Shown here piece after piece: positions 9,847 to 31,693 of a DNA stretch of 32,000 nucleotides. Under the pieces are notes generated by a model. That model was not told the origin of the DNA, ran no database searches, and saw only the letters and a program-made list of their open reading frames with translations. The stretch covers positions 150,001 to 182,000 of the forward strand of contig JANQMZ010000007.1 in assembly GCA_028279805.1 (NCBI GenBank), in the 5' to 3' direction. Every line of letters starts with the position of its first letter. The stretch's first letter is position 1. The DNA is from an archaeon (GTDB lineage: Archaea > Iainarchaeota > Iainarchaeia > Iainarchaeales > JANQMZ01). Made by a program: the position numbers and the translations under genes.

Positions 9847-9851
9847 CAGAA

Positions 9852-11117: not shown

Positions 11118-11144
11118 TTATTCCCCAGAAAGAGAACATAACAC

Positions 11145-11157
11145 TAAATTTTTAAAA
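11145..11157. promoter_or_regulatory. Symmetric TATA-like box (TAAATTTTTAAAA) in the 60-bp purA/guaB divergent intergenic region
   Basis: It is the only strong A/T box between the two start codons, with its centre about 27 nt from the guaB ATG and about 34 nt from the purA ATG. The call rests on position alone. Confidence 0.3.
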
Positions 11158-11177
11158 CATTCTAATAAGTGATTATT

Positions 11178-12605: not shown

Positions 12606-12653
12606 AACCGTGTTAACCCAACACTTTTATTTATTTTTAACAACATTTTTTAC

Positions 12654-13316
12654 ATGCCTGAAAGTTTTTTGGACTGGGATTCAGGAATAAAAAAAATTTG
12701 CACCAAAATCTCTTCTCTTGCAGAGCAAAAAAATCCCATTATAATAGGAATTACAGGGCCAAGTTGTGCCGGCAAAACAACAATTTCAAAAATTGTTTCA
12801 CAAAAAGTCAACGGTTCCTTGTTGTCAATGGATGATTATTATAAAGAACGGCAAAAAAATGAATATCATAAAAAACTGCAAAAAACTCCTGTTAAAAATT
12901 TTGATTCACCTGATTCAGTTGACATTAAACTTTTTGCAGAACATTTATATCTTTTATTAAACAAAAAAACAATAAAAAAACCTGTGTACGATTTTACAAT
13001 CAGCAACAGAACCGGTTTTGAATCGTTCAGTTCAAATAATATAATAATAACTGAGGGTTTATTTGTTTTCAACCCTGAAATTTCCAAATTTTTAGATTTA
13101 AAAATTTTTTTGGATGCTCCCCGAAATTTAAGGCTTGAAAGAAAAATTGAAAGAGATGTTTTTGAAAGAAACAGAACCAAAGAATACGCTTTAAACCAGT
13201 TTTTGGATAACACTGAACCGTTTGAAAAAAAACACATTTACCCTTTTAAAAAACACGCCGATATTTTAATTCAAAACATAAAAAATTCTGTCTTGACAGA
13301 TAACAATAACATATAA
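12654..13316 (+). CDS. udk: Uridine kinase / phosphoribulokinase-family nucleoside kinase
   Basis: It has the P-loop IIGITGPSCAGKTTISK, followed by LSMDDYYK and IIITEGLFVF, as in Udk-family kinases. Confidence 0.7.
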   Translation: MPESFLDWDSGIKKICTKISSLAEQKNPIIIGITGPSCAGKTTISKIVSQKVNGSLLSMDDYYKERQKNEYHKKLQKTPVKNFDSPDSVDIKLFAEHLYLLLNKKTIKKPVYDFTISNRTGFESFSSNNIIITEGLFVFNPEISKFLDLKIFLDAPRNLRLERKIERDVFERNRTKEYALNQFLDNTEPFEKKHIYPFKKHADILIQNIKNSVLTDNNNI

Positions 13317-13386
13317 ATACTACTTTTTGCTTCATTTTAGCGATTTTTATGCCCCAGAATCTAAAAAATTCTGTCTTGACAGATAA
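13279..13386 (+). repeat. 25-nt perfect direct repeat (TAAAAAATTCTGTCTTGACAGATAA) at 13279-13303 and 13362-13386, period 83 nt
   Basis: Read directly from the sequence. Copy 1 encodes KNSVLTDN at the C-terminus of the udk-like gene. Copy 2 encodes KNSVLTDN at the N-terminus of the next ORF. Confidence 0.9.
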
Positions 13387-17062: not shown

Positions 17063-17902
17063 ATGGCTAATCAGATACTATTACCACATTTATCCTGGAA
17101 TGAAAAATCAGCTAAGGGCACGATTATTGGTGTTTTAGCCAATGAATGGCCTCTTTCTACAAAAGAGGTTTTTAATCGGCTGAAAAAACGACATTCTTTC
17201 TCTGTTTCCTATCAAGCTGTTCACAAGGCTTTGAATGAGTTGGAAAAAGCTGAAATAATAAAAAAAGAAAACAAAAAGTATTCTTTGCACAGGAAATGGA
17301 TTGAAAACATTAAATTTTTTGCAAAAGATTTGGATTCAAAATATAAAAACAATACTAAAGCAACACCCTATTCTGAAGGAACTATTACGCTAACATTTGA
17401 TTCAATAGCAAATCTTGGAAGATTTATCATATACGATTATTTGCATGGAGATTATAATCCAAAAGGAAAGGATTGTGTTTGTTTGTGGAATCATTGCTGG
17501 CCTTTGATTGGTTTAAGTGATCAAGATCACCAAAAAATAGTTGATGCACTGGACATAGCTACACACTATTCTATAACAAAACAAAACACTTATTTGGATG
17601 ATTTGTTCACAGAAAGCTTAAACAAAATTGGTAAAAAATGCAAAACTGGAATTGACTATTTTGGATTAGGAGATTACATAATTGAAGGGGATTATGTTCT
17701 TCAAACAATTTATACTCCGAAATTTGCAAAATACTGGAACAAAGTTTACAAAACAACAAACAAAGAAACAATGGACATCGCAAAAATGTTCAAATTGTAT
17801 AACAAAAAAACAGAAATAACCGTAGTAATATTCAAAAACCAGCAATTTGCAGACAAATTAAGACAAGAAACTTTAAAACATTTTAGCGAGGGTTCAAAAT
17901 GA
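17063..17902 (+). CDS. Paralog 1 of 5: wHTH N-domain plus uncharacterised ~190-aa C-domain
   Basis: 279 aa. Family blocks present are NEWPLSTKEV...VSYQAVHKALNELEKAEII, WNHCWPLIG, GDYIIEGDYVLQTIY and EITVVIFKNQQFADKLRQETLKHF. Confidence 0.8.
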   Translation: MANQILLPHLSWNEKSAKGTIIGVLANEWPLSTKEVFNRLKKRHSFSVSYQAVHKALNELEKAEIIKKENKKYSLHRKWIENIKFFAKDLDSKYKNNTKATPYSEGTITLTFDSIANLGRFIIYDYLHGDYNPKGKDCVCLWNHCWPLIGLSDQDHQKIVDALDIATHYSITKQNTYLDDLFTESLNKIGKKCKTGIDYFGLGDYIIEGDYVLQTIYTPKFAKYWNKVYKTTNKETMDIAKMFKLYNKKTEITVVIFKNQQFADKLRQETLKHFSEGSK

Positions 17903-18720
17903 ATGGTGTTTCTGCAATTCCTCTTCTTTCCGATTCTTCAAAGAATGCAATTATTTCTTTACTTGTTGAAGAACAATCTTTAAAAGCAAAACAAATTCAT
18001 GAAAAACTGGAAAAAAATCATGGAATAAATGTAAGTTATCAAGCTGTCCACAAATCTTTAAGTGAATTGGAACAATCTGGTGTTGTTACTAAAACCAGTT
18101 CAGAATATAAAATTGACAAAAATTGGGTGGATAATTTAGAAATTTTTGCTAAAAATTTTTTGGAACAACATTATGGTTCATCTGATTTTGTTGATACGCA
18201 AACGATTGTAACAAATTCTTTGTACGAAACGGATATGGTTTTACTTGAAGCGGCTTTAAAAATGCTTGAAAACATGGAAGAAAAACCAATTCTTTGCATT
18301 CAGTGGCATCATGCATGGGTTCCATTGTTTTTAAATAAAAAAACTTATGCAGCCATAAAAGAGTTGATCCATAGAGTAGACTTGTATGATTTGATTAAAG
18401 GGGAAACTGTTGTAGACAAATGGTGTGCAAAATATTGGATAGAACGAGGTGTAAAATTAAAACTCGGAGTTGATTTGGGAAACAGTGCTGATCTAGTCAT
18501 CCTAGGGGATCATATTGTGCAAGTTTTTTATCCACAAGAACTAAGAAAAGAATTAGGTAAAGCATTTTCCAGCGTGAGTAAATTTTCAGAACTTAACACT
18601 GGTGAATTGTTCGAAAAAGTTTTCATGAAGCCAACAAAAATAACAATTGTCACAATGCGAAATAAACTTTTGGCTGAACAGTTGAGAAGAGAAACAATGA
18701 ATCATTTTAAAGGTGATTGA
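17899..18720 (+). CDS. Paralog 2 of 5
   Basis: 273 aa. Its start overlaps the paralog 1 stop (ATGA). Family blocks present are VSYQAVHKSLSELEQSGVV, WHHAWVPLFL, ADLVILGDHIVQVFY and KITIVTMRNKLLAEQLRRETMNHF. Confidence 0.8.
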   Translation: MNGVSAIPLLSDSSKNAIISLLVEEQSLKAKQIHEKLEKNHGINVSYQAVHKSLSELEQSGVVTKTSSEYKIDKNWVDNLEIFAKNFLEQHYGSSDFVDTQTIVTNSLYETDMVLLEAALKMLENMEEKPILCIQWHHAWVPLFLNKKTYAAIKELIHRVDLYDLIKGETVVDKWCAKYWIERGVKLKLGVDLGNSADLVILGDHIVQVFYPQELRKELGKAFSSVSKFSELNTGELFEKVFMKPTKITIVTMRNKLLAEQLRRETMNHFKGD

Positions 18721-19591
18721 ATTGCCTATTAATTTTACTGTCCCGGAATTGAGTGTTGATACTAATTCTTCAAAGGATACAATAATTTATGTGCTTTCAA
18801 ATGATTGGCCTTTAACTGTGACACAAATAAACAACAGAATATCTGATCTGTATGGCTTAAACATAAGTTATCAGGCGGTTCATAAAACATTGCTTCAACT
18901 GGAATTGGATAATATTGTTTTAAGAAAAGGAAAAAAATTTGAATTGAAAAAAAGCTGGATTAAAAATTTGAAAAATTTTGCAACAACACTTGAAAACAGG
19001 TACATTTTAAACGAAAGAAAAAAAAACATAAAATATAAAGGAAAACCAATTACATTAAAATTTGACGACATGAATGATTTTTTCAGAGAATTTTTATCAT
19101 TACTTGGAAGCAATCAATTAATTCAAAACAATAATAGGGCAATATATGCAATTCAAACACATGGATGGTTTCCATTAGGATTCAGATTCAGCGATTACAA
19201 TTTATTATCAAAACTGGTTAAATCAAATAAAAAAGGAGTTTGGTGTGTGATACAAAAAGAACTACCTTTTGATAAAGTTGTTGCACAAACATATAAAAGA
19301 GCTGGGTTAAATGTTTTAACAGGAATCAAAGACGACGCCTTCAAACACGGAGTTATAGCCCAGGGTGATTTTGTTTTTGACATTAACTTTTCACCTGCAA
19401 CAACAGAATTAGTGGAAGAGCTTTACTCAAAAACTCAAAATTTAAGCGTTTACTTCAGAGAATTCACAAAACAATTCACAGAAAAAAAAGATGTTAACAT
19501 AAAAATTAAAATAAGAAAAAATCCGTCTTACGCAAAATTGTTACAAAAACAAGTGTTGTCTCATTTTAAGGAGGAAGAACAAAATGATTAG
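18713..19591 (+). CDS. Paralog 3 of 5
   Basis: 292 aa from the GTG at 18713. The TTG at 18722, preceded by AAGGTGA, is an equally good start. Family blocks present are NDWPLTVTQI...ISYQAVHKTLLQLE, QTHGWFPLGF, HGVIAQGDFVFDINF and NIKIKIRKNPSYAKLLQKQVLSHF. Confidence 0.8.
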   Translation: MIELPINFTVPELSVDTNSSKDTIIYVLSNDWPLTVTQINNRISDLYGLNISYQAVHKTLLQLELDNIVLRKGKKFELKKSWIKNLKNFATTLENRYILNERKKNIKYKGKPITLKFDDMNDFFREFLSLLGSNQLIQNNNRAIYAIQTHGWFPLGFRFSDYNLLSKLVKSNKKGVWCVIQKELPFDKVVAQTYKRAGLNVLTGIKDDAFKHGVIAQGDFVFDINFSPATTELVEELYSKTQNLSVYFREFTKQFTEKKDVNIKIKIRKNPSYAKLLQKQVLSHFKEEEQND

Positions 19592-20468
19592 TGATACTTC
19601 TTCACATGGTTACTCAAACCCTTCTTCAACTAAGAATGCTATTGTTTCAACTTTATCTGAGAAATGGCCGCTTTCTGCAAAAGAGATACATTCCTCAATA
19701 ATTAATGCTTATAATATAACCGTGTCTTATCAAGCAATTCATAAAAAATTAATTGAATTAGAAAAAGAAACTATTATTGAAAAAAACGGAAAAAATTATT
19801 CTTTAAACAAAATTTGGATTTCAAACAACAAAGAATTTTTTAAAAAATTAACATCAAAATATGAAAACACTGTTGGAAAATATGAAATTGATCCAGATTT
19901 TGAAGGCACTATAAAATTAGATTTTCCAGATTTAACACTTTTACCTGTTACAATTGCCAGTCTTATTGGAAAAAAAGTTTTTATAGGAAATGGTCCAAAC
20001 ATTCTCACCGGATTTATAGATCATGCTTTGTGGCCATTAAGATTTAATTTTATGGATTTTGAAACTTTAAGAAGAATGTGTGTTAATATGGATGAAGCTT
20101 ATGCTATTATTGGAAATAATCAGCCATTTGATCAGTGGATAGCAAAACAATATCTAAGAGGCGGGTTTGATAAAGTCAAACTTGGAGTTAACTTTACAGG
20201 TAATGGAGATTATTTAATCGTTCACGGAGACTCTATAATTCAAATAACCATGAAAGAAGAAACCAAAAAATTTTTGGATAATATTTACGAAAAAATCTAT
20301 AATCTGTCAGATTTATACAAATATTATTTAAAAGCAAGAAATAAACAAATACCTGAATCAACAGAGGTTTTAATAACAAAAAATCCTGATTTGGCAAGTT
20401 TTTTGAGAAAGAAAATGATAGATATTTTCAAAGAGGACATTAAGATGGATAATAAGCTCCAAGCTTGA
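19584..20468 (+). CDS. Paralog 4 of 5
   Basis: 294 aa. Its start overlaps the paralog 3 stop by 8 nt (ATGATTAG), and AGGAGG lies upstream. Family blocks present are EKWPLSAKEI...VSYQAIHKKLIELEKETII, IDHALWPLRF, GDYLIVHGDSIIQITM and EVLITKNPDLASFLRKKMIDIF. Confidence 0.8.
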   Translation: MISDTSSHGYSNPSSTKNAIVSTLSEKWPLSAKEIHSSIINAYNITVSYQAIHKKLIELEKETIIEKNGKNYSLNKIWISNNKEFFKKLTSKYENTVGKYEIDPDFEGTIKLDFPDLTLLPVTIASLIGKKVFIGNGPNILTGFIDHALWPLRFNFMDFETLRRMCVNMDEAYAIIGNNQPFDQWIAKQYLRGGFDKVKLGVNFTGNGDYLIVHGDSIIQITMKEETKKFLDNIYEKIYNLSDLYKYYLKARNKQIPESTEVLITKNPDLASFLRKKMIDIFKEDIKMDNKLQA

Positions 20469-20493
20469 TGACTATTAATTTTAAGTGATTTTT

Positions 20494-21312
20494 ATGAGTT
20501 ATCAGGATTTGGAAACAGTTGGAGGAAAAAATTCAACTAAAAATTTAATTATAAATGCTTTAAGATTTAAGAACGATTTTACTACAAAACAGATTTATTT
20601 TTTTTTAAAAAAAGAATTTGGTTTAAATTCCTCTTATCAATCCGTTCACAAAGCATTGAAAGAACTTTCAAGTGAAAAAATTGTTTTTAAAAAAAACAAA
20701 AAATATTTTTTAAACCGGGAATGGATTCAAAATAACAAAATGTTTTTTGAAGAATTAGCTGATAAAAAAGTGGATTTAACACGACTTGAAAATCAAACAA
20801 TTAGCTTGTCTTTCAATTCTTATCATGAATTTATGGATAAAATGCTTGACATTTTTGCAAAAGAAAGAGAATTATTTCCAAACAATTTATGCGTAACTTA
20901 TCAAAATCATTTATACTGGACTATGAGTTTATCCAAAAATCAGTATAACAAGCTTAAAATTTTAGGTTCTCATGGAGGCTATATTGCCTGCAATGGAAAT
21001 TCTTTTTTTGACAAAGTTTTGGCAACAATATACAAAAAAGTGGGCTATGATGTGAAAACAGGTGTAAATTATTCAAACAATTTTGATTTTGTTGTATATG
21101 GAAACATAATTCATCAAATATTTTTTTCAGATAAACAAAAAAAAGAAATTAATATAATTTCAAAAAAATCAAAAAAAACTGAAGATATCTTTGAACAAGG
21201 ATTTCATGAAAAACTTTTTGAAAAACCCGGAAAAATAAATGTAGTTATTTTCAAAAATAAAGAATTGGCAGAACAACTGACAAATGATGTTTTAAAACAG
21301 GTTAAAAATTGA
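20494..21312 (+). CDS. Paralog 5 of 5 (most divergent)
   Basis: 272 aa from the ATG at 20494 (the ORF track uses the GTG at 20485). Family blocks present are SSYQSVHKALKELSSEKIV, YQNHLYWTMSL, FDFVVYGNIIHQIFF and INVVIFKNKELAEQLTNDVLKQV. Confidence 0.75.
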   Translation: MSYQDLETVGGKNSTKNLIINALRFKNDFTTKQIYFFLKKEFGLNSSYQSVHKALKELSSEKIVFKKNKKYFLNREWIQNNKMFFEELADKKVDLTRLENQTISLSFNSYHEFMDKMLDIFAKERELFPNNLCVTYQNHLYWTMSLSKNQYNKLKILGSHGGYIACNGNSFFDKVLATIYKKVGYDVKTGVNYSNNFDFVVYGNIIHQIFFSDKQKKEINIISKKSKKTEDIFEQGFHEKLFEKPGKINVVIFKNKELAEQLTNDVLKQVKN

Positions 21313-21460
21313 AAGAGGCCTCAATCTGAAGCCTCCTCTGCCTTTCAAGGGGTACCAACTCTCTCCTTGTAAAGTGGATAGGGCGCCCCTGTTGGAGCGC
21401 CGGAGCAGGCATCTCTCGCACGAGAGTAAACGCCTGAAATAACTCTGACGCGAGTAGTAA
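21313..21460. ncRNA. GC-rich, highly structured RNA candidate of unknown class; strand unresolved
   Basis: This stretch is about half G+C by eye, against AT-rich flanks. Nested helices can be read directly: 21315-19/21331-35, 21342-50/21365-74, 21382-88/21394-401, and 21406-10/21432-36 enclosing CTCTC-GCAC-GAGAG. Hairpin-plus-T-run terminators exist for either orientation. Only implausible Arg/Leu-rich ORFs cross it. Confidence 0.5.
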
Positions 21461-21500
21461 TATACCTTTGGTTGAAAAAAAATCAACCAAATAGTTGATT
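21461..21500. promoter_or_regulatory. Palindromic element B (TTTGGTTGA-A7-TCAACCAAA-TA-GTTGATT)
   Basis: It contains three TCAACC/GGTTGA half-sites. Its reverse complement aligns with element C at 30 of 40 positions by hand. It abuts a TATA-like GGTATATTA on the minus strand and a T8 run (21503-21511) on the plus strand. Confidence 0.5.
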
Positions 21501-21584
21501 ATTGTTTTTTTAGGATAAGAATATCTTGCCATCGGTTTTCATACAATCTGGAAAAAAGTATTTATTGAACAAAAAAAGCTATGG

Positions 21585-21617
21585 TTTAAAGCATAGAATT
21601 TAAAGCTTTTTTAAAGC
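21585..21617 (+). promoter_or_regulatory. Three direct copies of TTTAAAGC (two within the palindrome AAAGCTTT) upstream of the DsbA-like gene
   Basis: The copies start at 21585, 21599 and 21610, which is 43-68 nt upstream of the TTG start at 21653. They are TATA-like (TTTAAA) and could be a promoter or operator. Confidence 0.3.
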
Positions 21618-21652
21618 TTTAATGTTAGTACTTTTGTTATAGAGGTGATTGA

Positions 21653-22408
21653 TTGGGTAAAAAAAGACCAAAAAAAACAACAAGTCGTTCAAATAATTCA
21701 GGCAATTCTAATACTTATGTTATTGCCGGAGCAATTGTTCTGGCCGGAATAATAATCGGAGGGGCAGTATTTTTAACAAGCACTCCGGGAACAACTCTGC
21801 CTCCAAGCGGAAACAATGGAAATGGCGGAGGAGGGCATGGAAATGATGCCACTGTTTCAATGAAAGCTTTGCTTGAATCAGAATCAGCTGCAACTTTGGG
21901 AAACGAAGATGCACCGGTTGTTTTGATTGAATTTTCAGATTATGAATGTCCTTTCTGCAGGCAATGGTCTAATCAGTCAAAAGCACAGTTGGAAGCAGAA
22001 TATATTGACACAGGAAAAGTTTTGTTTGTATTCAAAGATTTCCCACTTACAAGAATTCATCCGTTTGCGGTAACCGCAGCTCATTCAGCACGATGTGCAG
22101 GAGAACAAGGCAAATACTGGGAAATGCATGACGCAATTTTTGATTTGTTTGGGCAAAACAATTTTTCACAGGAAACAGTTGAACAAACAGCTCAGGATTT
22201 GGAATTAAATGTAGCAGACTTTCAGGCATGCAATGAATCAGCAAAATTTTTGTCAAACATTCAGCAAAACTTTGATGAAGGAGCAAGCAATGGCATAACA
22301 GGCACGCCGGGATTTTTAATCGGAACACCTAACGGAACTGCAAGACTTATTTCAGGAGCACAGCCTTACTCTGTTTTCAAACAAGCAATTGATTCACTAT
22401 TGGCATAA
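21653..22408 (+). CDS. Membrane-anchored DsbA-family thiol:disulfide oxidoreductase
   Basis: It has a TTG start 4 nt after GAGGTGA. An N-terminal basic segment and TM helix (YVIAGAIVLAGIIIGGAVFL) are followed by a Gly/Asn linker. The thioredoxin fold carries the active site EFSDYECPFCRQW and a C-terminal GTPGFLIG. Confidence 0.8.
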   Translation: MGKKRPKKTTSRSNNSGNSNTYVIAGAIVLAGIIIGGAVFLTSTPGTTLPPSGNNGNGGGGHGNDATVSMKALLESESAATLGNEDAPVVLIEFSDYECPFCRQWSNQSKAQLEAEYIDTGKVLFVFKDFPLTRIHPFAVTAAHSARCAGEQGKYWEMHDAIFDLFGQNNFSQETVEQTAQDLELNVADFQACNESAKFLSNIQQNFDEGASNGITGTPGFLIGTPNGTARLISGAQPYSVFKQAIDSLLA

Positions 22409-22617: not shown

Positions 22618-22854
22618 ATGGAGCATGAAGTTAAAATTTATTCAACACCAACTTGTTCTTGGTGTGCAAAAGCAAAAGAATTCTTCAAAGAAAACAACGT
22701 TAAATATGAAGAATATGACGTTGCAATGGATGAAGAAAAAAGAAATGAAATGGTTGAAAAATCAGGACAATTAGGCGTGCCGGTAATCGATGTTGACGGC
22801 AACATAATTGTAGGATTTGACCAGCCAAGACTAACAGAATTATTGGACCTGTAA
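22618..22854 (+). CDS. Glutaredoxin-like small redox protein (NrdH/YruB-like)
   Basis: 78 aa. Motifs present are KIYSTPTCSWCAKAKEFF (CxxC), GVPVIDVDG and IVGFD. Confidence 0.8.
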   Translation: MEHEVKIYSTPTCSWCAKAKEFFKENNVKYEEYDVAMDEEKRNEMVEKSGQLGVPVIDVDGNIIVGFDQPRLTELLDL

Positions 22855-22968: not shown

Positions 22969-23008
22969 AATCAACTAAATGGTTGATAAAAAATCAACCA
23001 AACGTATT
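22969..23008. promoter_or_regulatory. Palindromic element C (AATCAAC-TAAAT-GGTTGAT-A5-ATCAACCAAA), immediately upstream of a TATA-like GTATTTAAG
   Basis: It has three TCAACC/GGTTGA half-sites in the same order and spacing as the reverse complement of element B. The TATA-like box lies about 50 nt upstream of the ATG at 23058, and a GGGGGAGTGG ribosome-binding site lies between them. Confidence 0.5.
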
Positions 23009-23057
23009 TAAGACAATGTATGGTAATCCTACAAGCAGGGGGGAGTGGAATGAAAAA

Positions 23058-25454
23058 ATGAAAAGGTTAATCCTGACTTTAATTTGTTTAATTTTATTGT
23101 TTTCAAGTGTTTTTGGATGGTGGAATGCAAGCTGGGAGTTCAGGCAGCCTTTAACCCTTTCAACTTCAACTCTTTCCAATGATGTTTTAAACGACCATTC
23201 TATTTTGGTTAAAGTTGATTCAACAAACACGGATTTTTGGAACAGTGTTAAAAGTGATGGAAAAGATGTTCGTTTTGTTGCTGCAAACGATTTAACTGAA
23301 TTAACTTATCATATTGAAAAATTTGATTATTTTGGACAGGAAATGATTGCATGGGTTAAGGTAACCGATACTTTCAGTTCTGTTTCCAATACAAACATTT
23401 TCATGTATTATGGCAATCCCAACGCTTTTGGAAATGAAAATGAAGCCGGAACTTATCCTGCTTATTATAAAGCTGTTTACAATTTCAATGAAAATTCCGG
23501 AACAATTTTGGACAAAACTTCCAATAACAATGATTCAATTTTACAGGAAATTAATGCTTACCAGGTTAACGGCAAAATGAATGGAGCTGTTCAAACAATA
23601 GCTTCATCAAACCATGCCACTGTTCCCGATTCAAATTCTTTGGATTTGGGTTCAAACGGTTCCATTTCTTTTTGGATAAATTTTGGTTCAGATTTTCCTT
23701 CAGGGCATTCCTCTGACATTTATTTGATTGAAAAAGACGGTCCCCCTTTATCTTCAAACATTTTGATTTTTCAAAAAAGCAACGGAAAACTTGGATTTTT
23801 GCTTGGAAACGCATATGATTATTCAAGCAAAAGTTTGTGGACCGGCGGAACCTGGCATAACATAATTTTAACATGGGACGGCGTGTCCAAAAAAGCTTAT
23901 GTAAATGCTTCAATAAACGATGGCTTTGATGTGGCAAGCGGGGATTCCTGGAAAACAAATCTTGCAGATTTAACAATTTTTAATAACAGTAATAAAAACA
24001 GAAGCGGTTCGGCGGACCATGATGAAATAAGATTTTATAATATTGCATTAAATTCTGATGAAGTAAGCCTGTTATACAAATCTGAAAACAATAGCCTGAT
24101 TTCTTTTGGAAACCAGGAATCTTCAGGCGGAAGTGCACCTCCCTCTGGTGACCAAAACATTTGGGTTACATTTGTTTCCGATTCAGGAAGCACAACAGTT
24201 GATGTTCCGGAAGACACTTTAACTGTTGCAGGAGGAGATGGTATAAGCACAAGCATTTCCGGTGACACTTTAACAATTACCAATACAGCTTTAAGTGCAG
24301 GTGTTGCAGGAATTTTTGCCGGGCTTGGAATTGACCTTAATGCCAACACCGGTGACGTTTTGGTTTCAGTCAGCAACATTGTTGCATTGTTGTCAGGCAG
24401 GGCAGGAGGACAACACTTGTATGGCGGCATTAATGCCGGTGAAAATTTAACTCTTGAAAGCACTGCTAATGCCAGCAAAGGCTTAATCAATTTATTAGAT
24501 AATACAAGAATTGGTTGTAATGGTGATGCCAACAGTGCATCCCTTGTAACCTGTGGCGAACTAAAATCAGAGTCAGACACAGGGGGCTTAACCGTTTCTC
24601 CAAATGCTGCCGGTGCTGGAAATCCGGGAATTTTTTCTTATCTGGGCAACAGTCTGCATTTTGGTGCCAATAATTCCACATCCGGCTTGGTTTTGAATGC
24701 TGATAATGATGTTGGAATTGGCGGCATTGGTGCTTTTGCTGATGCAAAGCTTCATGTTGTTGAGGATAGCGTCAACAAACTTGTTTTGAAGGCTGTTAAG
24801 AATGTTGCAAATTCTTTTGTTCCTGTTGTTCAGATGTCGCAAAGCAATTCAAACGGCAACACTGAGGTTTTGGAACTGGTGCAGAATGATTCTGATGAAC
24901 CTTTTGTTGAATTTGTTGGCTCTAAAGGCAATGCAGCTTCAATTGACACTAACATTGATAAAAGACTTGCTTACATGTTAAAAACCACAATTGAATCCAA
25001 CAGCATTGAAGAATCTGTTTATTTGCCTGTTTATGGGGACGGGCATGAGGATCCTGACAATGTCATTGAGTCAGAGGTTTCTCAAAGCAGCGGCTTTTCA
25101 ACAAATTCTTTGGTTTTTGTTGATGTTACAAATCCTGCCGGCTTTGATTTAAACATTCCTAAAAAGAGCACGGTTATTCTGAATGCAATGGTTACCCATT
25201 TCAATAATGTTGGCGGAACAAATAATTTTTTCAGGTGGAAGCTTGGAAATAATGAATCTGTCAGCGTTGCACAGGAAACAATTCCACAGTTTAACCAGGT
25301 TACCACGACTTATGTTCAGGCAATTTTCAAAAACATTGAACCCGGCATTTACAATGCCAAACTTCAAATGAAAGTAAGCGGCGGAACAGGCATAATCGCC
25401 TTTTCCACCAACGATTCAGTAGCCCAGTTAACAGCGGTAACATATGAAGAATAA
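23058..25454 (+). CDS. Large secreted protein: signal peptide, DUF2341, LamG/concanavalin-like domain, and a shared ~430-aa C-terminal module
   Basis: The ATG at 23058 gives the signal MKRLILTLICLILLFSSVFG. WWNASWEFRQPLTL...DGKDVRFV...AWVKV...IFMYYGNPNA matches the DUF2341 pattern. A LamG-like region follows (ISFWINF...WHNIILTWDG...DEIRFYN). The C-terminal module (24162-25454) is homologous to 29909-31192. Confidence 0.85.
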   Translation: MKRLILTLICLILLFSSVFGWWNASWEFRQPLTLSTSTLSNDVLNDHSILVKVDSTNTDFWNSVKSDGKDVRFVAANDLTELTYHIEKFDYFGQEMIAWVKVTDTFSSVSNTNIFMYYGNPNAFGNENEAGTYPAYYKAVYNFNENSGTILDKTSNNNDSILQEINAYQVNGKMNGAVQTIASSNHATVPDSNSLDLGSNGSISFWINFGSDFPSGHSSDIYLIEKDGPPLSSNILIFQKSNGKLGFLLGNAYDYSSKSLWTGGTWHNIILTWDGVSKKAYVNASINDGFDVASGDSWKTNLADLTIFNNSNKNRSGSADHDEIRFYNIALNSDEVSLLYKSENNSLISFGNQESSGGSAPPSGDQNIWVTFVSDSGSTTVDVPEDTLTVAGGDGISTSISGDTLTITNTALSAGVAGIFAGLGIDLNANTGDVLVSVSNIVALLSGRAGGQHLYGGINAGENLTLESTANASKGLINLLDNTRIGCNGDANSASLVTCGELKSESDTGGLTVSPNAAGAGNPGIFSYLGNSLHFGANNSTSGLVLNADNDVGIGGIGAFADAKLHVVEDSVNKLVLKAVKNVANSFVPVVQMSQSNSNGNTEVLELVQNDSDEPFVEFVGSKGNAASIDTNIDKRLAYMLKTTIESNSIEESVYLPVYGDGHEDPDNVIESEVSQSSGFSTNSLVFVDVTNPAGFDLNIPKKSTVILNAMVTHFNNVGGTNNFFRWKLGNNESVSVAQETIPQFNQVTTTYVQAIFKNIEPGIYNAKLQMKVSGGTGIIAFSTNDSVAQLTAVTYEE

Positions 25455-25487
25455 TGGAGAATTAAAAAAAATAGGAGTTGATAGGGA

Positions 25488-26243
25488 ATGAAAAAAAATA
25501 TTTTGCTAATATTGATTTTGATTTTACTAAGTTCTTTTTCATTCGCATCTGAAGATATTTCGGAATCTATGAAAAAACCAAGTGAACCGATAGAAATTAA
25601 GCAGATAGTTAAGGAAACAGGTCCTTTGCCGGAGCATATTGACCCTAATTTCACTTTGGAACAAATTCATAGAATGCTAGAAGGATTTTTGGCGGATAGA
25701 GGAATCATCAGCGATGAAACCGTTTTTTATGATTTGGGTCTTAACGAGATAAATTTAATTGATTCTATAAAACTTGAACGTTCTTTTGATGAGTCGGAAT
25801 ATATAATGCGTCCGATATATTTGTTTGTTTTTGTAATAAAGAATGATAATGCAAATTCTGTTTCTTATGAATTATTTTCAGGGGATTTTGATGGTTTGAC
25901 TGGAGAAAATATTCGTTTTGATAAACCTATAAAAACAATCTTTTACAACTTGAAAACAAAGGATGATGTAGTTGAATTAATGAAAGATAGATTTGGTTTT
26001 TCTGAAAACGAAATAAAAGTCAGTTTGGTTTATTATACATCTAGTTGGAGAGTGAAAGTTGATGCTGGTAGCTATGAAGTTTATGATAATGGGTTAATAG
26101 ATGGTCCTTATAAGGCTCAAACAACTGGTTCCTCAAGCACTTCGGTAAGACAAGCACCGCGAACAGTAGCATCATATTATCCGTTAATTTTTGGATTTAT
26201 AATAATTGTAATAGGTTTGTTTTTTCTGGTGAGAAAAAAATGA
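25488..26243 (+). CDS. Small bitopic membrane protein with two PepSY-like repeats (signal peptide plus C-terminal TM anchor)
   Basis: It has the signal MKKNILLILILILLSSFSFA and the C-terminal anchor YYPLIFGFIIIVIGLFFLVRKK. Two segments end in PepSY-like motifs (YELFSGDFDGLTGENI and WRVKVDAGSYEVYDNGLI). Its stop overlaps the protease start (ATGA at 26240-26243). Confidence 0.6.
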   Translation: MKKNILLILILILLSSFSFASEDISESMKKPSEPIEIKQIVKETGPLPEHIDPNFTLEQIHRMLEGFLADRGIISDETVFYDLGLNEINLIDSIKLERSFDESEYIMRPIYLFVFVIKNDNANSVSYELFSGDFDGLTGENIRFDKPIKTIFYNLKTKDDVVELMKDRFGFSENEIKVSLVYYTSSWRVKVDAGSYEVYDNGLIDGPYKAQTTGSSSTSVRQAPRTVASYYPLIFGFIIIVIGLFFLVRKK

Positions 26244-29200
26244 AAAAGCATTATGTATTTTTTTTTCTTGCACTAATTTTTTCCTTTGCTTTAGTTGGAT
26301 CTGACATAAATAATTCAGAAAATAACACTTACAAGCTTCAAGAAAGAAGCTATTTGACAATGCTTTCACCTAGCAATGAAATGGAAATGCATCCCGACCC
26401 TTCCTTCGAAATAAAATTATTAAATGGATTTTTTATCCCTAAAGCTGGTGTTGGGATAGATATAACCAATATTGAAAAAGAAAATACTGGAGAAGAAATT
26501 TATGCTTTGGTTCAATTTCAAAGAGGCTTGATTGATTCTGATGCCCATGATTTTCTTGAGAATCAAAATTCTTTAGAATTGGGCCGTGTTCCTGACAATA
26601 CCTATGTTATCAAAATCCCAATCAACAATCTGAAAAATTTTTTTGAAAGTTATCTGATTAGATGGATCAATATTCTTCAACCAGAACAGAAAATCCATCC
26701 GAATATAGCTGAACAAGATGAATCCTTGGAAGTTTTGGTCACAGCATTTGAAAACATGACTCAAGATCAAATAGAAAAAATTTCTGTTTTGTCAGAAGAA
26801 GTGATTTTTGATGGAAAAGACTCTGAATCAATTCTTGTGAAAGCCACTTATTCAAATATTTTTAAAATTGCCAAGTTGAACTTTATTCAATGGATTTCAC
26901 CTAGAGGAACAGGTAAAACATCTCTAGACAACAGTGCAAGAGTTATCTCAGTTCCTTATGTCTGGTCTCAGGGAAATACTGCTTCCGATGTCACTGTTGG
27001 GATAATAGATTCTGGACTTGATTTTGATCATCCACACTTTTTTAATCCAACTATTCCAATCTACAAATCTAAGGATTGGGTTGATGGGGGAATGAATCCA
27101 GAGGATGAACAGGTGCATGGTACCCTTATGGCTGGAACTATTTCTGGATCTGGTAGTAGTTCTTCAAGCTCAAGATATTATAAAGGCATTTCAAATAGAG
27201 CAGCTTTGACAATAGAAAAGGCTTTCGATAGTCATGATGACTGGGTAGCACCACATCCTGCTTTAAATCCTGTTTGGAATTGGATATTGGATCCTAATCA
27301 AAATTTTAGTTTTAATGATAATCAAGATGCAGATATAATAAACAATAGTTGGGCACATTATTTTACTTATGGTGCCTATGAGCAAGCGTCTCAAAAAGTT
27401 GATAAAGTTGTTAGAGGAGAATTATCAAATGGAAAAAAAATTGTAGTTGTTTTTGGTTCAGGAAATGATCATGCAATTTCTAATGGGGCTGGAGTTGAAC
27501 CCCCCGCCACTGCAAAAAATGCTATAACTGTTGGTGCCAGTGCTGATTTCAGATCTTCAACTGAAGAATCTCAATATTCTCAGGATTTTTGTCCGCCTGA
27601 TTCACGCTGTAACTACGACAGTTTGAATGGATATGTAATGGAATATAGTGGAAGGGGCACTCTTGATGGAAGAGTCAAACCAGACATTTTAGCTCCAGGA
27701 TCCACCACTTTTGGTCCAGTAGCTCAAACTACAGTATATGCTTCTGGTGATGGAACAAGTGCTGCTGCTGCGCATGTTTCTGCTGTAGCTGCTCAAATCT
27801 TGCAAGCATATTCAACGGCATCACCTGCCTTGGTGAAGGCTCTTCTTGTCAACAATGCAGTGGGAGCTGGAACAACAGACAACAAGAATTATGATGAAGG
27901 ATGGGGGAGACTAAGCGCATTTGAATCAATTTACTGGTTAACGGATGATTACACCGCCACGTTCAACGAATTTAATCTTGGTGGACCAGGTACAGGATTA
28001 AGCAATGAAGGATATCTCGAAAGATATGTTCCTGCAGATGCAGACAGAATTGTTGTTACAATGGCTTATGATGATGAACCGTCATTTCTTTTGGGTTCTG
28101 TTCCAACTCTTAAAAACAATATTGATTTGTATTTGCAGAAACCCAATGGGTCTCAGTTGTATGTTAACGATGATTCTGTGAATAATGTTGAAAAATATGT
28201 GATTGATGATCCTGATGAAGGGAATTGGAGATTTTATGTAAAATTTGTTAATCCACAATGGTTAAGTACTCAAGATGCGGCGATGAACCTAAAAATTATT
28301 AGGAAAACTCAGCCATCTTCAACAGATATTTTGAGTACTTCTGGTCCAATTAATGTTGATCAAGGAGAAAATTTCAAAATTACTGCGAATGTTCATGCTG
28401 TTGGATTGGTTAACTATGATATGTGGACAAGAATAGATGTTCCAAATGGACTAACCTTGACTTTGCCTGGTTTTTATGACAGTATGGATGGGGATAAAAA
28501 TGTGCTAGGTGATATCCCTGCAGATGTTTTTGTGAATACTGGTGATTGGGTTATAAGAGCTGATGATCCTGGGACTTATAATGTTAGAATTTATGCACAG
28601 GGAAAAAGAAAAGATGGATCAAATATTTTTGAAGTTGATACAACAGTTGTGAATGTAAATCCAACAGAAAAAGACCCTGGAGATTTATGTTCTTCACATT
28701 CTGAGTGTGGAACTGGTTATTGTGAGGGTTCTGCTTCAAATCCTGCAAGATGTTGTGTTGCGGTTCCTCCACAAGATGGTTGGTATGGAGGAGGCAATAC
28801 GAGTACAGCGCAATGTGGTGTTGTTGATAATGATGCTGCATCTATTTACAGGGATTATTATTGTGATGCTTCCGGTTCTGCTCAAATAGAGCCAACAGAT
28901 GCCCAGGATTGTGATTCAAGTGATGGTTGGTATGGTGGTGGAAATACTGCTGGTTGTGGTGATGACCCTTCGTCAATTTGGAGAGATTATTATGTAACAA
29001 CCAATGACAACACTTGCACTTATACTGAATCTTGTAATGGAAACAATTCTTTTGATTGTGATGCCCAGGATGCTTGTGCTCCTTATTGCAGCGGTAATAC
29101 TGCAATTTTTGGAACGGATTATTATGTTGTTGAAAATACCAACACGTGCACTTCAATTGAAGAGAGTGAGGATTGTACTGTAAAAGATTCAACTGATTCT

Positions 29201-31192
29201 GATGGTGGAAACATTCCTTTAACTTTTGGAAGTGTTTTGGATTATGATGCTTGTTCTAATGGTGGCTGTATTGGAACCCAGCATGATGATGTTTGCACAA
29301 CTTCAACTGATTTAACTGAATTTTTTGATCAGGGAACTTCTTTTTCATCTCAGGCTTATTCTTGTAATGATTTTGAAACATTGGCTGTTGATCCGGATGG
29401 GGATGATCCAAGTGTTAATGCTACTTGTATTGGTGGAACAAGTGCAACTTGTTCTGTTGGAAAATTTGATGCAGTTGTTCAGGCAAACGGAACAGACCAA
29501 TGCCAGGGAACTTGTGGTTTGGGTGAAAATTCCTGTTCCTTTGTAGAATTTTATGTGGCAGATTCAGCTGATGCTTGCACCGGTTTGGATTCTTGTGCCC
29601 AAAAAACTTATGATGCTGATACAGCTGAAAACACTTGCAATACTTGTCTGGGTTCAAATCATTGGAATATTGGCGGAGAGGTTTCATCATCCTGTTGTGG
29701 AGATGATGCAAGTGAATACAAGAATACAAGAGTTTGTGTTGTTAATGTTTGTTCTACTGATAATGGTGATGGTGCTTGTTGCCTTTCAAACAATAGTTGT
29801 GTTTACAATAACACTTGTTATGCGGATGGTTTCAGGGGTGATGTTGATTTGGATACAAACCAGGAATTTTGTAATAATGGCATCTGGTCTGAGCCTCCGA
29901 AAGATGTTTGGAAAACTTTTTTGGCTGATTCAGGGAGTGCAAGTGCTGATATTACAGAGGATGTTTTAAGTGTTTTAAGCGGTGCAGGAATTTCTACAAG
30001 CATTGTTGGTGATGTTTTAACTGTTACCAATACTGTGCTGAATGGAGAAGACTTGGATGGAGTTAGTGCTTTGTTTGGCGGAATAGGAATTGACGTTAAT
30101 CCAAACAAAGGCGATGTAACTGTTTCAATTGCTGATGTTGTTGCTTTGCTGTCCGGGAGAAGCGGCGGACAAACCTTAAGCGGGGGAATTAATGCTGGTG
30201 AAAACCTGAATCTGGAAAGCACCAGTGATTCAACAAAAGGCCTGATTAATTTGTTGGATGATGTGAGGGTTGATTGTTCTGGTGATGCAAACGTTGCCGA
30301 TTTGACTGCTTGCGGAACTTTGCGATGGGAATCAGCTCAGAGTGGTTTGATAGTTTCTCCTGTTCTTGAAGGTGCTGGCAAACCGGGAATAATCACTTAT
30401 TTGGATAATGAATTGTATTTGGGAGCAAATTCTGCAACCGGTTTAATCATTAATGAGTTTAATGATGTTATTGTTGGCAGTGCAACTCCTTTAACCGGTT
30501 CAAAGCTTAATGTTATTGATAATTTGTCAAATAAAATTGCTTTAAAATTAGCCAAAGACATTTCAAATGCTGTTGTTCCTGTTGTTCAAATCAGGCAGGA
30601 TAACCCGAATGCCGGTTCAAATGTTTTGAATTTGGTGCAAAATGATTCAGATGAATCCTTTATGAAATTCACTGGTTCAAAAGGAAATGTTTTGTCAATT
30701 GATTCTAATTTGGATAAAAAAATAACTTACATGCTTAAAACGGAAATGGAGTCCGGTGTAAGTGAAAATGTTTTTGTTCCTGTTTTTGTTGATGCTGCTG
30801 ATTCAAAAAATGTTACTGGTTTTAGTAATGCAACCGGAAACTTTTCAACTGTTTCAACTCAATTTGTTGATGTAACCAATCCGGCTGATTTTAATATTAC
30901 TTTGACAAAGAAAAGCACTGTTATTTTGACTGCAATGATTCCTCACACCAATACTGTAACCAATTCCTTTAATCGTTTCAGATGGGTTTTTGGAAATAAT
31001 ACTTCTTCAAGCATGTCTCAAAAAATGCATGGTGCTGTTTATACAACCAGAGTTCCCGGAATTTTTAAAAATGTTGAACCGGGAACTTATAATGTAAAAC
31101 TGCAAATGGAAGTAAGTGCAGGAACGGGAATAATTGGTTACACTCCTGGCAATTCTGTTGCTCAATTGATTGCAGTAAGCTATGAGGAATAA
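26240..31192 (+). CDS. Giant secreted subtilisin-like (S8) protease with propeptide-like N-region, P-domain-like and beta-sandwich regions, a Cys-rich repeat region, and the shared C-terminal module
   Basis: It has the signal MKKHYVFFFLALIFSFALVG. The catalytic triad contexts are VGIIDSGLD (Asp codon at 27008), HGTLMAGTI (His codon at 27115) and GDGTSAAAAHVSAVAAQ (Ser codon at 27758). NIDLYL..P.G...NNVEKYVI...GNWRFYV resembles a P-domain. About 38 Cys fall in 28672-29908. The module at 29909-31192 is homologous to 24162-25454. Confidence 0.9.
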   Translation: MKKHYVFFFLALIFSFALVGSDINNSENNTYKLQERSYLTMLSPSNEMEMHPDPSFEIKLLNGFFIPKAGVGIDITNIEKENTGEEIYALVQFQRGLIDSDAHDFLENQNSLELGRVPDNTYVIKIPINNLKNFFESYLIRWINILQPEQKIHPNIAEQDESLEVLVTAFENMTQDQIEKISVLSEEVIFDGKDSESILVKATYSNIFKIAKLNFIQWISPRGTGKTSLDNSARVISVPYVWSQGNTASDVTVGIIDSGLDFDHPHFFNPTIPIYKSKDWVDGGMNPEDEQVHGTLMAGTISGSGSSSSSSRYYKGISNRAALTIEKAFDSHDDWVAPHPALNPVWNWILDPNQNFSFNDNQDADIINNSWAHYFTYGAYEQASQKVDKVVRGELSNGKKIVVVFGSGNDHAISNGAGVEPPATAKNAITVGASADFRSSTEESQYSQDFCPPDSRCNYDSLNGYVMEYSGRGTLDGRVKPDILAPGSTTFGPVAQTTVYASGDGTSAAAAHVSAVAAQILQAYSTASPALVKALLVNNAVGAGTTDNKNYDEGWGRLSAFESIYWLTDDYTATFNEFNLGGPGTGLSNEGYLERYVPADADRIVVTMAYDDEPSFLLGSVPTLKNNIDLYLQKPNGSQLYVNDDSVNNVEKYVIDDPDEGNWRFYVKFVNPQWLSTQDAAMNLKIIRKTQPSSTDILSTSGPINVDQGENFKITANVHAVGLVNYDMWTRIDVPNGLTLTLPGFYDSMDGDKNVLGDIPADVFVNTGDWVIRADDPGTYNVRIYAQGKRKDGSNIFEVDTTVVNVNPTEKDPGDLCSSHSECGTGYCEGSASNPARCCVAVPPQDGWYGGGNTSTAQCGVVDNDAASIYRDYYCDASGSAQIEPTDAQDCDSSDGWYGGGNTAGCGDDPSSIWRDYYVTTNDNTCTYTESCNGNNSFDCDAQDACAPYCSGNTAIFGTDYYVVENTNTCTSIEESEDCTVKDSTDSDGGNIPLTFGSVLDYDACSNGGCIGTQHDDVCTTSTDLTEFFDQGTSFSSQAYSCNDFETLAVDPDGDDPSVNATCIGGTSATCSVGKFDAVVQANGTDQCQGTCGLGENSCSFVEFYVADSADACTGLDSCAQKTYDADTAENTCNTCLGSNHWNIGGEVSSSCCGDDASEYKNTRVCVVNVCSTDNGDGACCLSNNSCVYNNTCYADGFRGDVDLDTNQEFCNNGIWSEPPKDVWKTFLADSGSASADITEDVLSVLSGAGISTSIVGDVLTVTNTVLNGEDLDGVSALFGGIGIDVNPNKGDVTVSIADVVALLSGRSGGQTLSGGINAGENLNLESTSDSTKGLINLLDDVRVDCSGDANVADLTACGTLRWESAQSGLIVSPVLEGAGKPGIITYLDNELYLGANSATGLIINEFNDVIVGSATPLTGSKLNVIDNLSNKIALKLAKDISNAVVPVVQIRQDNPNAGSNVLNLVQNDSDESFMKFTGSKGNVLSIDSNLDKKITYMLKTEMESGVSENVFVPVFVDAADSKNVTGFSNATGNFSTVSTQFVDVTNPADFNITLTKKSTVILTAMIPHTNTVTNSFNRFRWVFGNNTSSSMSQKMHGAVYTTRVPGIFKNVEPGTYNVKLQMEVSAGTGIIGYTPGNSVAQLIAVSYEE

Positions 31193-31258
31193 TAAACTTG
31201 TTTGGTTTTAACCGAACAAAATACTATTATTTAAAAACTTCAAAAACAGGGTTTTAGT

Positions 31259-31693
31259 ATGAAGAGAGTTTTGTTAATCTTAGGTTTGATTATTTTAGTT
31301 GGCTTTGTTTATGGAGCAGAAATGATTCGAGATACTGGAGAAAACGATTTGAGTCCTTATTACCGTGTTTCCGGAAGCCCTTATCTTCGCCTTCCAGAAA
31401 GCATGAAAAACTGGCCTGCTGTTTCATTACCTGAACTTGAAGAGCTTCCAGAAGAAAGTGATCCTGGAGAAGTTGTTGAATACAATGCGCTAACTAAAAA
31501 AGTTGTTAGATATCCTATAAAAGAAAATTTGTCAAATAATAATTCTAATTCCTCTTCATATCTTGGTTTGTTGTCTTTAGCTTTTCGGGAGAATCAACAA
31601 CTAATCGCTTCTGAAATTTTGTTTTCGTCATTTGTTTTTGCTGGTACTTTGGGTGTGGTAATATTTTTTGGAAAAAGTTTTTGGTTGCTTTAG
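31259..31693 (+). CDS. Small bitopic membrane protein (signal peptide plus C-terminal TM anchor)
   Basis: 144 aa. It has the signal MKRVLLILGLIILVGFVYG, an acidic/Pro-rich middle and the C-terminal helix ILFSSFVFAGTLGVVIFFG. It occupies the same position relative to the protease that 25488-26243 occupies relative to the LamG protein. Confidence 0.5.
   Translation: MKRVLLILGLIILVGFVYGAEMIRDTGENDLSPYYRVSGSPYLRLPESMKNWPAVSLPELEELPEESDPGEVVEYNALTKKVVRYPIKENLSNNNSNSSSYLGLLSLAFRENQQLIASEILFSSFVFAGTLGVVIFFGKSFWLL

Follow-up and report, generated by a model that had tools for sequence, protein, structure and literature searches.

A candidate tailed-virus fiber module shared by a lectin-like protein and a protease from an archaeon

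Two kinds of described surface protein come closest to the large proteins A and B analyzed here, which are encoded in a 32,000-nucleotide stretch of archaeal DNA (contig JANQMZ010000007.1, positions 150,001 to 182,000; "the window", whose first letter is position 1 below). The mosaic adhesive trimer (MAT) fibers of Bdellovibrio are cell-encoded, phage-tail-fiber-like proteins with interchangeable C-terminal tips (PMC10769870). They serve a cell that attaches to other cells, and the members nearest to A and B are the NS74 proteins Bd2734 and Bd2439. Two of the MAT tips are TNF-like and sugar-binding and form a trimeric knob at the distal end; the TNF-like tips bind prey sugars of the N-acetylglucosamine type, and loss of MAT slows prey entry (PMC10769870). 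SPEARE proteins of Nanohaloarchaeota, which are symbiotic archaea with small genomes, are giant extracytoplasmic proteins in which a serine protease is joined to LamG-type adhesion domains and which have been proposed to act in host interaction (PMC6642349). They are single chains of 3,000-8,500 residues, with a transmembrane helix and a cytoplasmic type III restriction-enzyme-like domain that is their most conserved part (PMC6642349).

A and B have features of both systems. Like MAT fibers they are cell-encoded and have a signal peptide, fiber motifs and a modular TNF-like C-terminal tip, which is similar to that of Bd2734 (8% identity to structure 8okw in the structural alignment; no sequence link was found, a direct sequence comparison with MAT proteins not having been run). 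In contrast to MAT fibers, which have no N-terminal enzymatic or lectin head, A has a lectin-like head and B a protease head, and both are archaeal. With SPEARE proteins they share protease and LamG domains in giant secreted proteins of a small-genome archaeon, but the protease and LamG are split onto two proteins, a viral fiber module is present, and there is neither a C-terminal transmembrane helix (hydropathy) nor a nuclease domain (Pfam); they are not SPEARE members. Cell-encoded phage-fiber-like adhesins and giant protease-plus-LamG surface proteins are already known. New are the attachment of a complete viral fiber-plus-knob module to two different heads, an S8 protease and a DUF2341-LamG unit, and the presence of such fusions in an archaeon; we found no paper linking DPANN archaea with C1q/TNF-like or tail-fiber modules.

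Little is known of how small-genome (DPANN-type) archaea recognize and hold on to partner cells, and most of the large surface proteins presumed to take part lack annotation. The locus would assign about 440 formerly unannotated residues in two such proteins to tailed-virus receptor-binding hardware.

A C-terminal module shared by two proteins with unrelated heads

BLASTP aligned residues 384-823 of A with residues 1217-1650 of B in a single collinear alignment (241 of 445 positions identical, 54%; 71% positives; E=1e-139) and gave no significant similarity outside this region. An earlier note on the window had proposed collinear, homologous C-terminal modules on unrelated heads, and both statements stand: the motifs that it quoted, a conserved Cys pair (C512/C524 in A, C1346/C1358 in B) and a terminal YEE are present in both modules, and the module starts that it gave (24162 and 29909) lie only 7-10 codons inside the true module, which spans 24132-25451 in A and 29888-31189 in B. 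Module identity is 54-56%, and that of the tips 55-59%. At the DNA level the modules are 63% identical over 429 aligned codons, and 52% of the identical residues share a codon, which argues, as the earlier note did, against a recent duplication. The third-position GC content (GC3) of the two modules is 0.33 and 0.25, inside the range of 0.16-0.33 for genes of the window, and recent horizontal transfer of the module was rejected on this ground. The low codon sharing together with the host-like GC3 indicates an old duplication or fusion that has long been resident in this genome.

The genes and domains of the locus are as follows.

22983-25454, + strand: gene A, 823 residues as listed; predicted secreted DUF2341-LamG protein with C-terminal fiber module
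23058-23117, + strand: signal-peptide-like N-terminus of A (MKRLILTLICLILLFSSVFG), the sole hydrophobic segment in A
23256-24068, + strand: head of A, with DUF2341 (23256-23519) and a LamG/ConA-like lectin fold (23604-24068), from Pfam
25488-26243, + strand: small protein a', 251 residues; signal peptide, ectodomain of about 200 residues, C-terminal transmembrane helix, then RKK
26240-31192, + strand: gene B, 1650 residues; signal peptide, S8 subtilase, Cys-rich spacer, fiber module
26240-26299, + strand: signal peptide of B, from hydropathy
26984-27907, + strand: S8 subtilase of B (Pfam Peptidase_S8)
28688-29872, + strand: Cys-rich spacer of B (residues 817-1211), with 38 Cys in residues 801-1216
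29888-31189, + strand: fiber module of B, collinear with that of A; repeat 29900-30034, ALLSGR motif 30143-30259, tip 30797-31189
31259-31693, + strand: small protein b', 144 residues; signal peptide and C-terminal transmembrane helix

The heads of A and B belong to different Pfam families. A carries DUF2341 (PF10102, residues 92-179; E=1.3e-12, 48.5 bits against a cut-off of 23.4) and Laminin_G_3 (PF13385, residues 208-362; E=1.1e-12, 48.8 bits, cut-off 27.6), while B carries Peptidase_S8 (PF00082, residues 249-556; E=2.9e-38, 132 bits, cut-off 21.8). The catalytic triad of B is intact (D257 in DSG, H293 in HGT, S507 in GTS) and the oxyanion residue N409 is present; judged by these residues, the protease is apparently active. 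A reading of the locus as a defense system was discarded, PADLOC having given generic subtilase matches only. The spacer of B contains recurring units such as 'DGWYGGGNT..CG....I(Y/W)RDYY', matches no Pfam family and is an unclassified disulfide-rich repeat region.

Both proteins begin with a signal-peptide-like N-terminus. The start of gene A is ambiguous, with candidates at TTG 22983 (open reading frame list), ATG 23016 (public gene call, 812 residues) and ATG 23058. The last of these is most likely on sequence grounds, because it is the only one with a Shine-Dalgarno-like sequence upstream (GGGGGGAGTGG; the other two candidates have none) and with a canonical signal peptide at the very N-terminus, whose cleavage was judged by eye from the -3/-1 rule. 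A simple hydropathy scan detected one hydrophobic segment in each of A and B, at the N-terminus, and no transmembrane segment besides it; this agrees with the statement of the earlier note that neither protein has a membrane anchor.

Among the proteins searched, the complete module is carried by A and B only. We searched the module minus its first element (alignment A1) exhaustively with HMMER against 1.84 billion representatives, and full-length matches to this profile were limited to A and B themselves. Among about 15 billion sequences, A, B, a' and b' each form a singleton cluster, recorded from NCBI and from the Logan assembly SRR20820740. The module has no Pfam, NCBIfam or PADLOC match, and PDB sequence searches with a single module, a tip profile and a whole-module profile gave none either. 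Pattern matches in GTDB genomes (A1) and in JGI metagenomes (alignments A2 and A5) were not confirmed by tblastn. The earlier note had named restriction of the module to these two genes as a finding that would speak against its reading; the restriction holds for the complete module but not for the parts, which recur in 848 proteins (element 2) and in homologues of the tip.

Stalk and tip of the module

We divided the module into four elements, given here for A.

24150-24287, + strand: element 1, a single repeat of about 45 residues, 'QNxW-T-x-DSGS...D-LT-AGG-GISTS-GDTLTITN'
24384-24500, + strand: element 2, the 'ALLSGRAGGQxLxGGINAGENLTLESTxxxxKGLINLLD' motif
24501-25052, + strand: element 3, middle stalk and neck, with C512/C524, 'NDVGIGG...AKLHV' (24705-24758) and 'PVVQ...LVQNDSDEPFVEF.GSKGN' (24819-24986)
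25053-25451, + strand: element 4, the tip (residues 691-823), a predicted TNF/C1q-like beta jelly roll that ends in YEE

The stalk elements are homologous to parts of viral fiber proteins. Element 1 matches PHROG 677, 'baseplate wedge tail fiber protein connector' (E=2.1e-9 in A, 0.036 in B). In a word-indexed search the module gave partial matches only, covering about 10% of its length, and all of these were tandem copies of the element 1 repeat, which occurs in proteins P0001-P0016 as 'QNLWETxxSDSGSTxAxxxxDTLTIAGGTGISTSISGDTLTITN'. Several of these proteins are 493 residues long and carry PF07880, the family of T4 gp9/gp10-like proteins. In the exhaustive search, 848 proteins matched at E<=1e-3, mainly at profile positions 29-65, which correspond to element 2, and often with several matches per protein. 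The consensus of element 2 among them is DDDHTQYALLAGRAGGQ...LTLESTSNATKG and reads 'DDDHTQYALLAGRAGGQTLIGGTAASETLTLESTSNATKG'. Fiber-like giant proteins have up to eight or more copies of it, often with 'GNVGIGTxxPxxxLHV' next in the chain. These results agree with the suggestion in the earlier note that the GGQ-L-GG and VGIG...KLHV motifs belong to tail fibers. Relatives of the stalk also carry Peptidase_S74, DUF2793 or a beta-helix; Peptidase_S74 is the endosialidase-chaperone hallmark of tail fibers, and A and B have no such domain (Pfam).

Element 3 is covered piecewise by homologues: P0157 matches module positions 77-250, P0114 positions 82-221 and P0165 positions 174-307. One further protein, P0044, matches module positions 2-180 collinearly and in one piece, indicating that the order of the elements is itself conserved. 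By these sequence matches, the module is a mosaic of standard tailed-virus fiber-shaft elements with a tip, in a full combination unique to this genome.

The tip belongs to a small new family, unannotated in Pfam, NCBIfam and PHROGs. Its homologues P0036 and P0042 match the last 127 residues of the module (E about 1e-14 to 1e-15 against the whole library). The family domain is about 130 residues long, with its beginning close to 'S-x-VDVTNPA' and with 'A-I-E-E' or 'YEE' as its last residues; members other than A and B are short proteins of 144-328 residues. The locus thereby defines a tip-domain family, 'xVDVTNPA ... KLQM ... AIEE', that is missing from current domain databases. In the three cases with enough context, tip homologues are found in viral tail modules at the places of tail fibers, behind the baseplate genes in one case and behind the tape-measure region in two: the P0042 gene comes after Sheath_initiator and Baseplate_J_C, at a distance of two small genes, and its contigs have further genes for PolB, SNF2, ERCC4 and PDDEXK proteins; on a contig with an integrase, the third gene past a TMP_2 tape measure is that of P0172; and the P0173 gene comes after those for capsid, tail tube and a 603-residue protein. 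The P0042 contigs (L002-L005) carry a baseplate module of the contractile-tail type and have a GC content of 29-31%, compared with about 33% for the window. Since ERCC4 is typical of archaea and eukaryotes, they could belong to an archaeal virus.

We modeled the tip with AlphaFold2 (AF2) from an alignment of 11 sequences. The model is all-beta, with a predicted local distance difference test score (pLDDT) of 80.9 and a predicted template-modeling score (TM-score) of 0.77. Foldseek gave 123 PDB matches for it at E<=1e-3. Among these, gC1q heads (Caprin-2, C1QL1/3, C1q), TNF-like lectins and EDA-A1 were matched with probability 1.00 and TM-scores of 0.58-0.75, the lectins BC2L-C-Nt and PLTL giving 0.67-0.71. 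The matches also include the central spike knob of phage phi812 (9eul, E=7.5e-6), the C-terminal domain of Bdellovibrio Bd2734 (8okw, TM-score 0.72, E=1.6e-5), Chlamydia Pgp3-C (TM-score 0.75) and the short tail fiber of cyanophage A-1(L) (8ke9). In BFVD, 561 viral models matched at E<=1e-3 (top TM-score 0.87). Among them are annotated tail proteins, including an L-shaped tail fiber and host-specificity protein J, as well as C1q-domain proteins from cyanophages and giant viruses; a virion component of HSTV-1, a virus of archaea, matched too. The check suggested in the earlier note, for a tail-fiber tip or a C1q/TNF-like jelly roll, is thus positive by AF2 and Foldseek. The tip would be a TNF/C1q-like jelly roll by structural assignment to this model, not by family membership.

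With fibers of Caudoviricetes, such as those of phi812 and cyanophage A-1(L) and the metagenomic fibers P0042, P0172 and P0173, A and B share the PHROG 677 repeat, the ALLAGRxGGQ motif and VGIG..KLHV, and their tip is homologous to P0036 and P0042 and has the same predicted fold. In contrast to those fibers, A and B lie in a cellular context and have signal peptides, and large non-fiber heads replace the virion-attachment domain. The likeness to C1q/TNF heads and TNF-like lectins is that of a jelly roll of about 130 residues at the C-terminal end of a stalk (TM-score 0.64-0.75), but the tips of A and B lie outside the sequence families PF00386 and PF00229, neither of which matches full-length A or B.

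LamG (Laminin_G_3) genes also occur near fiber-like genes on two viral or virus-like contigs (L087, 12764-13495; L088, 5283-6071 and 6410-7177), so that a pairing of LamG with fibers recurs in viruses. These viral LamG genes show no detectably greater similarity than generic LamG to the LamG head of A, and a comparison of the heads of A and B with them showed no similarity.

A proposed role for the module

We propose that A and B are secreted archaeal proteins, analogous to the MAT fibers of Bdellovibrio, in which a domesticated tailed-virus fiber module forms trimers and targets the heads through a ligand-binding knob, and we assign this a probability of roughly 0.55. Both proteins would be exported and would then trimerize via the module, whose thin stalk of standard fiber repeat motifs would end in a TNF/C1q-like jelly-roll knob. 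The knob would attach to a ligand on a surface, in all likelihood a glycan or envelope protein that belongs to another cell. The module would accordingly serve as a device for both targeting and oligomerization: a trimer of A would bring three DUF2341-LamG lectin-like heads to the bound surface, and a trimer of B would bring three subtilisin-type protease heads on a disulfide-rich spacer. We infer the homotrimer and the ligand-binding knob by analogy, because every characterized protein of such a build has them; which end is distal, the identity of the target and any role in cell-cell association are likewise inferred. In phage fibers and in C1q, the knob is the distal, ligand-binding end. The analysis itself shows the homology of the two modules and that of their parts to viral fiber proteins, the tail-gene setting of the tip homologues, the predicted tip fold, the intact catalytic residues of the protease and the signal-peptide-like N-termini. 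The cellular setting and host-like GC3 also favor the proposal, for which the MAT fibers are a cell-encoded precedent.

Several results weigh against this proposal. The AF2 monomer model of the whole module has a pLDDT of 59, and the stalk is of low confidence (35-65); a poor monomer model is usual for fibers that fold only as trimers, and proves nothing. The fold of the tip is assigned from a single AF2 model built on 11 sequences, and none of these sequences matches Pfam C1q (PF00386) or TNF (PF00229) at E<=1. A tblastn search of the module against 50,697 annotated phage records gave no match; the motif-rich relative P0028 matched one 'caprin-2 domain protein' there, over 10% of its length. 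Pattern matches to the module and tip in IMG/VR (alignments A2 and A5) were not confirmed by tblastn. No other genome with the architecture of A and B was found, so there is no comparative support for a function. Finally, the polarity is unusual, the N-terminus bearing functional heads where phage and MAT fibers have their attachment end, and retention of A and B on the producing cell, if any, is unexplained.

This polarity, which leaves retention open, leads to a second reading, in which A and B are released effectors: soluble secreted trimers, one a lectin and one a protease, guided by the viral-type knob to a substrate or to a competitor cell, much like bacteriocins aimed at a receptor, or like complement, where C1q works together with serine proteases. 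Both N-termini resemble cleavable signal peptides, no sorting signal was detected by NCBIfam at the C-termini of A and B (neither PGF-CTERM nor any other model), the S8 protease looks active from its residues, and the knob fold is common to soluble lectins such as BC2L-C and PLTL. Sequence alone does not separate soluble trimers from surface fibers. The association of DUF2341 with pilus-tip adhesins (PMC4858521) points to structures that stay with the cell. We regard release as unlikely, though it deserves to be kept in view.

The small proteins bear on a third reading. As the earlier note stated, the next gene after each large one encodes a small protein that has both a signal peptide and a transmembrane helix at the C-terminus, and hydropathy agrees (hydrophobic segments at residues 1-24 and 226-251 of a', and at 1-24 and 118-138 of b'). 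The four open reading frames A, a', B and b' are co-oriented on the + strand; the a' stop and the B start overlap by 4 nt, 33 and 66 nt separate the other neighboring genes, and b' is followed by a T-rich tract. The earlier note took the small proteins to be anchor subunits: the module would bind a' and b', or the producer's envelope, and the lectin-like and protease heads would be displayed outward on the producer. The adjacency, the 4-nt overlap and the short gaps on one strand are consistent with such docking, as is the fact that A and B have no anchor besides their N-terminal signal sequences, so that surface display needs a retention mechanism. However, BLASTP detects no similarity between a' and b' (best E=16), whereas the modules that they would bind are 56% and the tips 55-59% identical, and docking would need two unrelated partners for such similar modules. 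Both small proteins are singletons with no relatives found (a' has a self match only among 5.8 billion clusters), no gene beside the viral tip homologues resembles either, and in characterized TNF/C1q-tipped fibers such as MAT proteins the knob is the distal ligand-binding end. The anchor-subunit model is not supported, and we consider docking quite improbable.

Neither a' nor b' belongs to a Pfam, NCBIfam, PHROG or PADLOC family. None of the curated NCBIfam models for sorting signals (PGF-CTERM, LPXTG and similar) scored above threshold for either protein; the tail of a' gave a sub-threshold score with an LPXTG subfamily (18 bits, cut-off 47), and b' gave nothing. The adjacency of a' and b' to A and B is a single, unreplicated observation. 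The small proteins are lineage-specific and may be co-transcribed with the fiber genes; nothing ties them mechanistically to the fibers.

Returning to targeting by a domesticated fiber module, one may go further and suppose, at rather long odds, that a small-genome archaeal symbiont captured a viral receptor-binding fiber and fused it to a lectin-like head and to an active protease, obtaining self-targeting trimeric tools that would recognize the host envelope, hold on to it and digest it locally, as an archaeal counterpart of the MAT fibers. The symbiont and a virus might then exploit the same host receptor, since the nearest relatives of the tip are those of tailed viruses with low GC content, PolB and ERCC4 (L002-L005). 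The knob fold serves ligand binding from phage fibers to complement C1q. If the knob of A and B does bind a ligand on a host cell, the 130-residue tip would offer a concrete handle on partner specificity, the re-use of phage fibers by a cell, a strategy described for a bacterial predator, would also have arisen in archaea, and B would be a natural example of a subtilase fused to a viral targeting module.

Genomic surroundings of the locus

The genes of the window bear on whether A and B are cellular proteins at all. Conceivably they could be virion fibers, components or remnants of a provirus or tailocin, as the tip family and the pieces of the module occur elsewhere in tail modules of tailed viruses, and LamG genes sit beside fiber genes in viral loci. 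However, genes for capsid, portal, terminase, tail tube, baseplate or integrase are absent from the 23 kb upstream and the 5 kb downstream, and the neighbors are genes for purine biosynthesis, TyrRS, KaiC, DsbA, glutaredoxin and an ABC transporter. A and B carry signal peptides, for which virion fibers have no need, and the GC3 of the modules is like that of the rest of the window. Membership in a virion fails on the housekeeping neighbors, the signal peptides and the host-like GC3, and we consider a provirus or tailocin origin of the present locus very improbable.

The window encodes PurS/L/Q, PurA, GuaB, UPP synthase, a DsbA-like thioredoxin and a glutaredoxin; a KaiC-domain protein adjoins a V4R protein, and the TyrRS is of archaeal type (NF006330, 387 bits against a cut-off of 220). 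The relatives of PurA reach at most about 53% identity among 185,579 GTDB species genomes, and the best (about 50%) are a mixture of Thermoplasmata, Thorarchaeota and Bacillota. PurA thus gives no taxonomic placement, and the assignment to archaea comes from the archaeal TyrRS model, the KaiC/V4R genes and the gene content. The source is probably a poorly sampled archaeon with a small genome (853,278-bp contig). The earlier note considered the locus to fit an episymbiotic lifestyle: the genome does look archaeal and small, but the window encodes purine biosynthesis, and the lifestyle stays conjecture.

Genes for a DsbA/Thioredoxin_4 protein (21653-22408, with a hydrophobic N-terminal stretch by eye) and a glutaredoxin (22618-22854) lie directly upstream of gene A; one may speculate that they provide a local extracytoplasmic supply of disulfide bonds for A and B, given the 38 Cys in B and the conserved Cys pair of each module. 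On the other side, 3' of b', a convergent MacB-type ABC transporter (FtsX/MacB_PCD - ABC_tran - FtsX/MacB_PCD) and a CARDB-domain protein are encoded at positions 9106-13353 of locus L001, and an export or envelope function is possible for these genes.

Five tandem, co-oriented paralogues of 273-294 residues (27-32% mutual identity, E 1e-21 to 1e-40) occupy 17063-21312, upstream of the fiber locus. None matches a Pfam or NCBIfam family, and one shows a faint winged-helix (TBPIP) match; the group looks like a lineage-specific expansion of putative regulators. The gap that follows, 21313-21652, is free of open reading frames and contains a GC-rich island of about 140 nt (core 21315-21460) in an otherwise AT-rich genome. 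We found no tRNA and no Rfam gathering match in the island, and a nearby Rfam match to STnc410 is weak and implausible. The island folds better than its shuffles (z=-3.0 on the + strand, -2.5 on the - strand) and may be an unannotated structured RNA.

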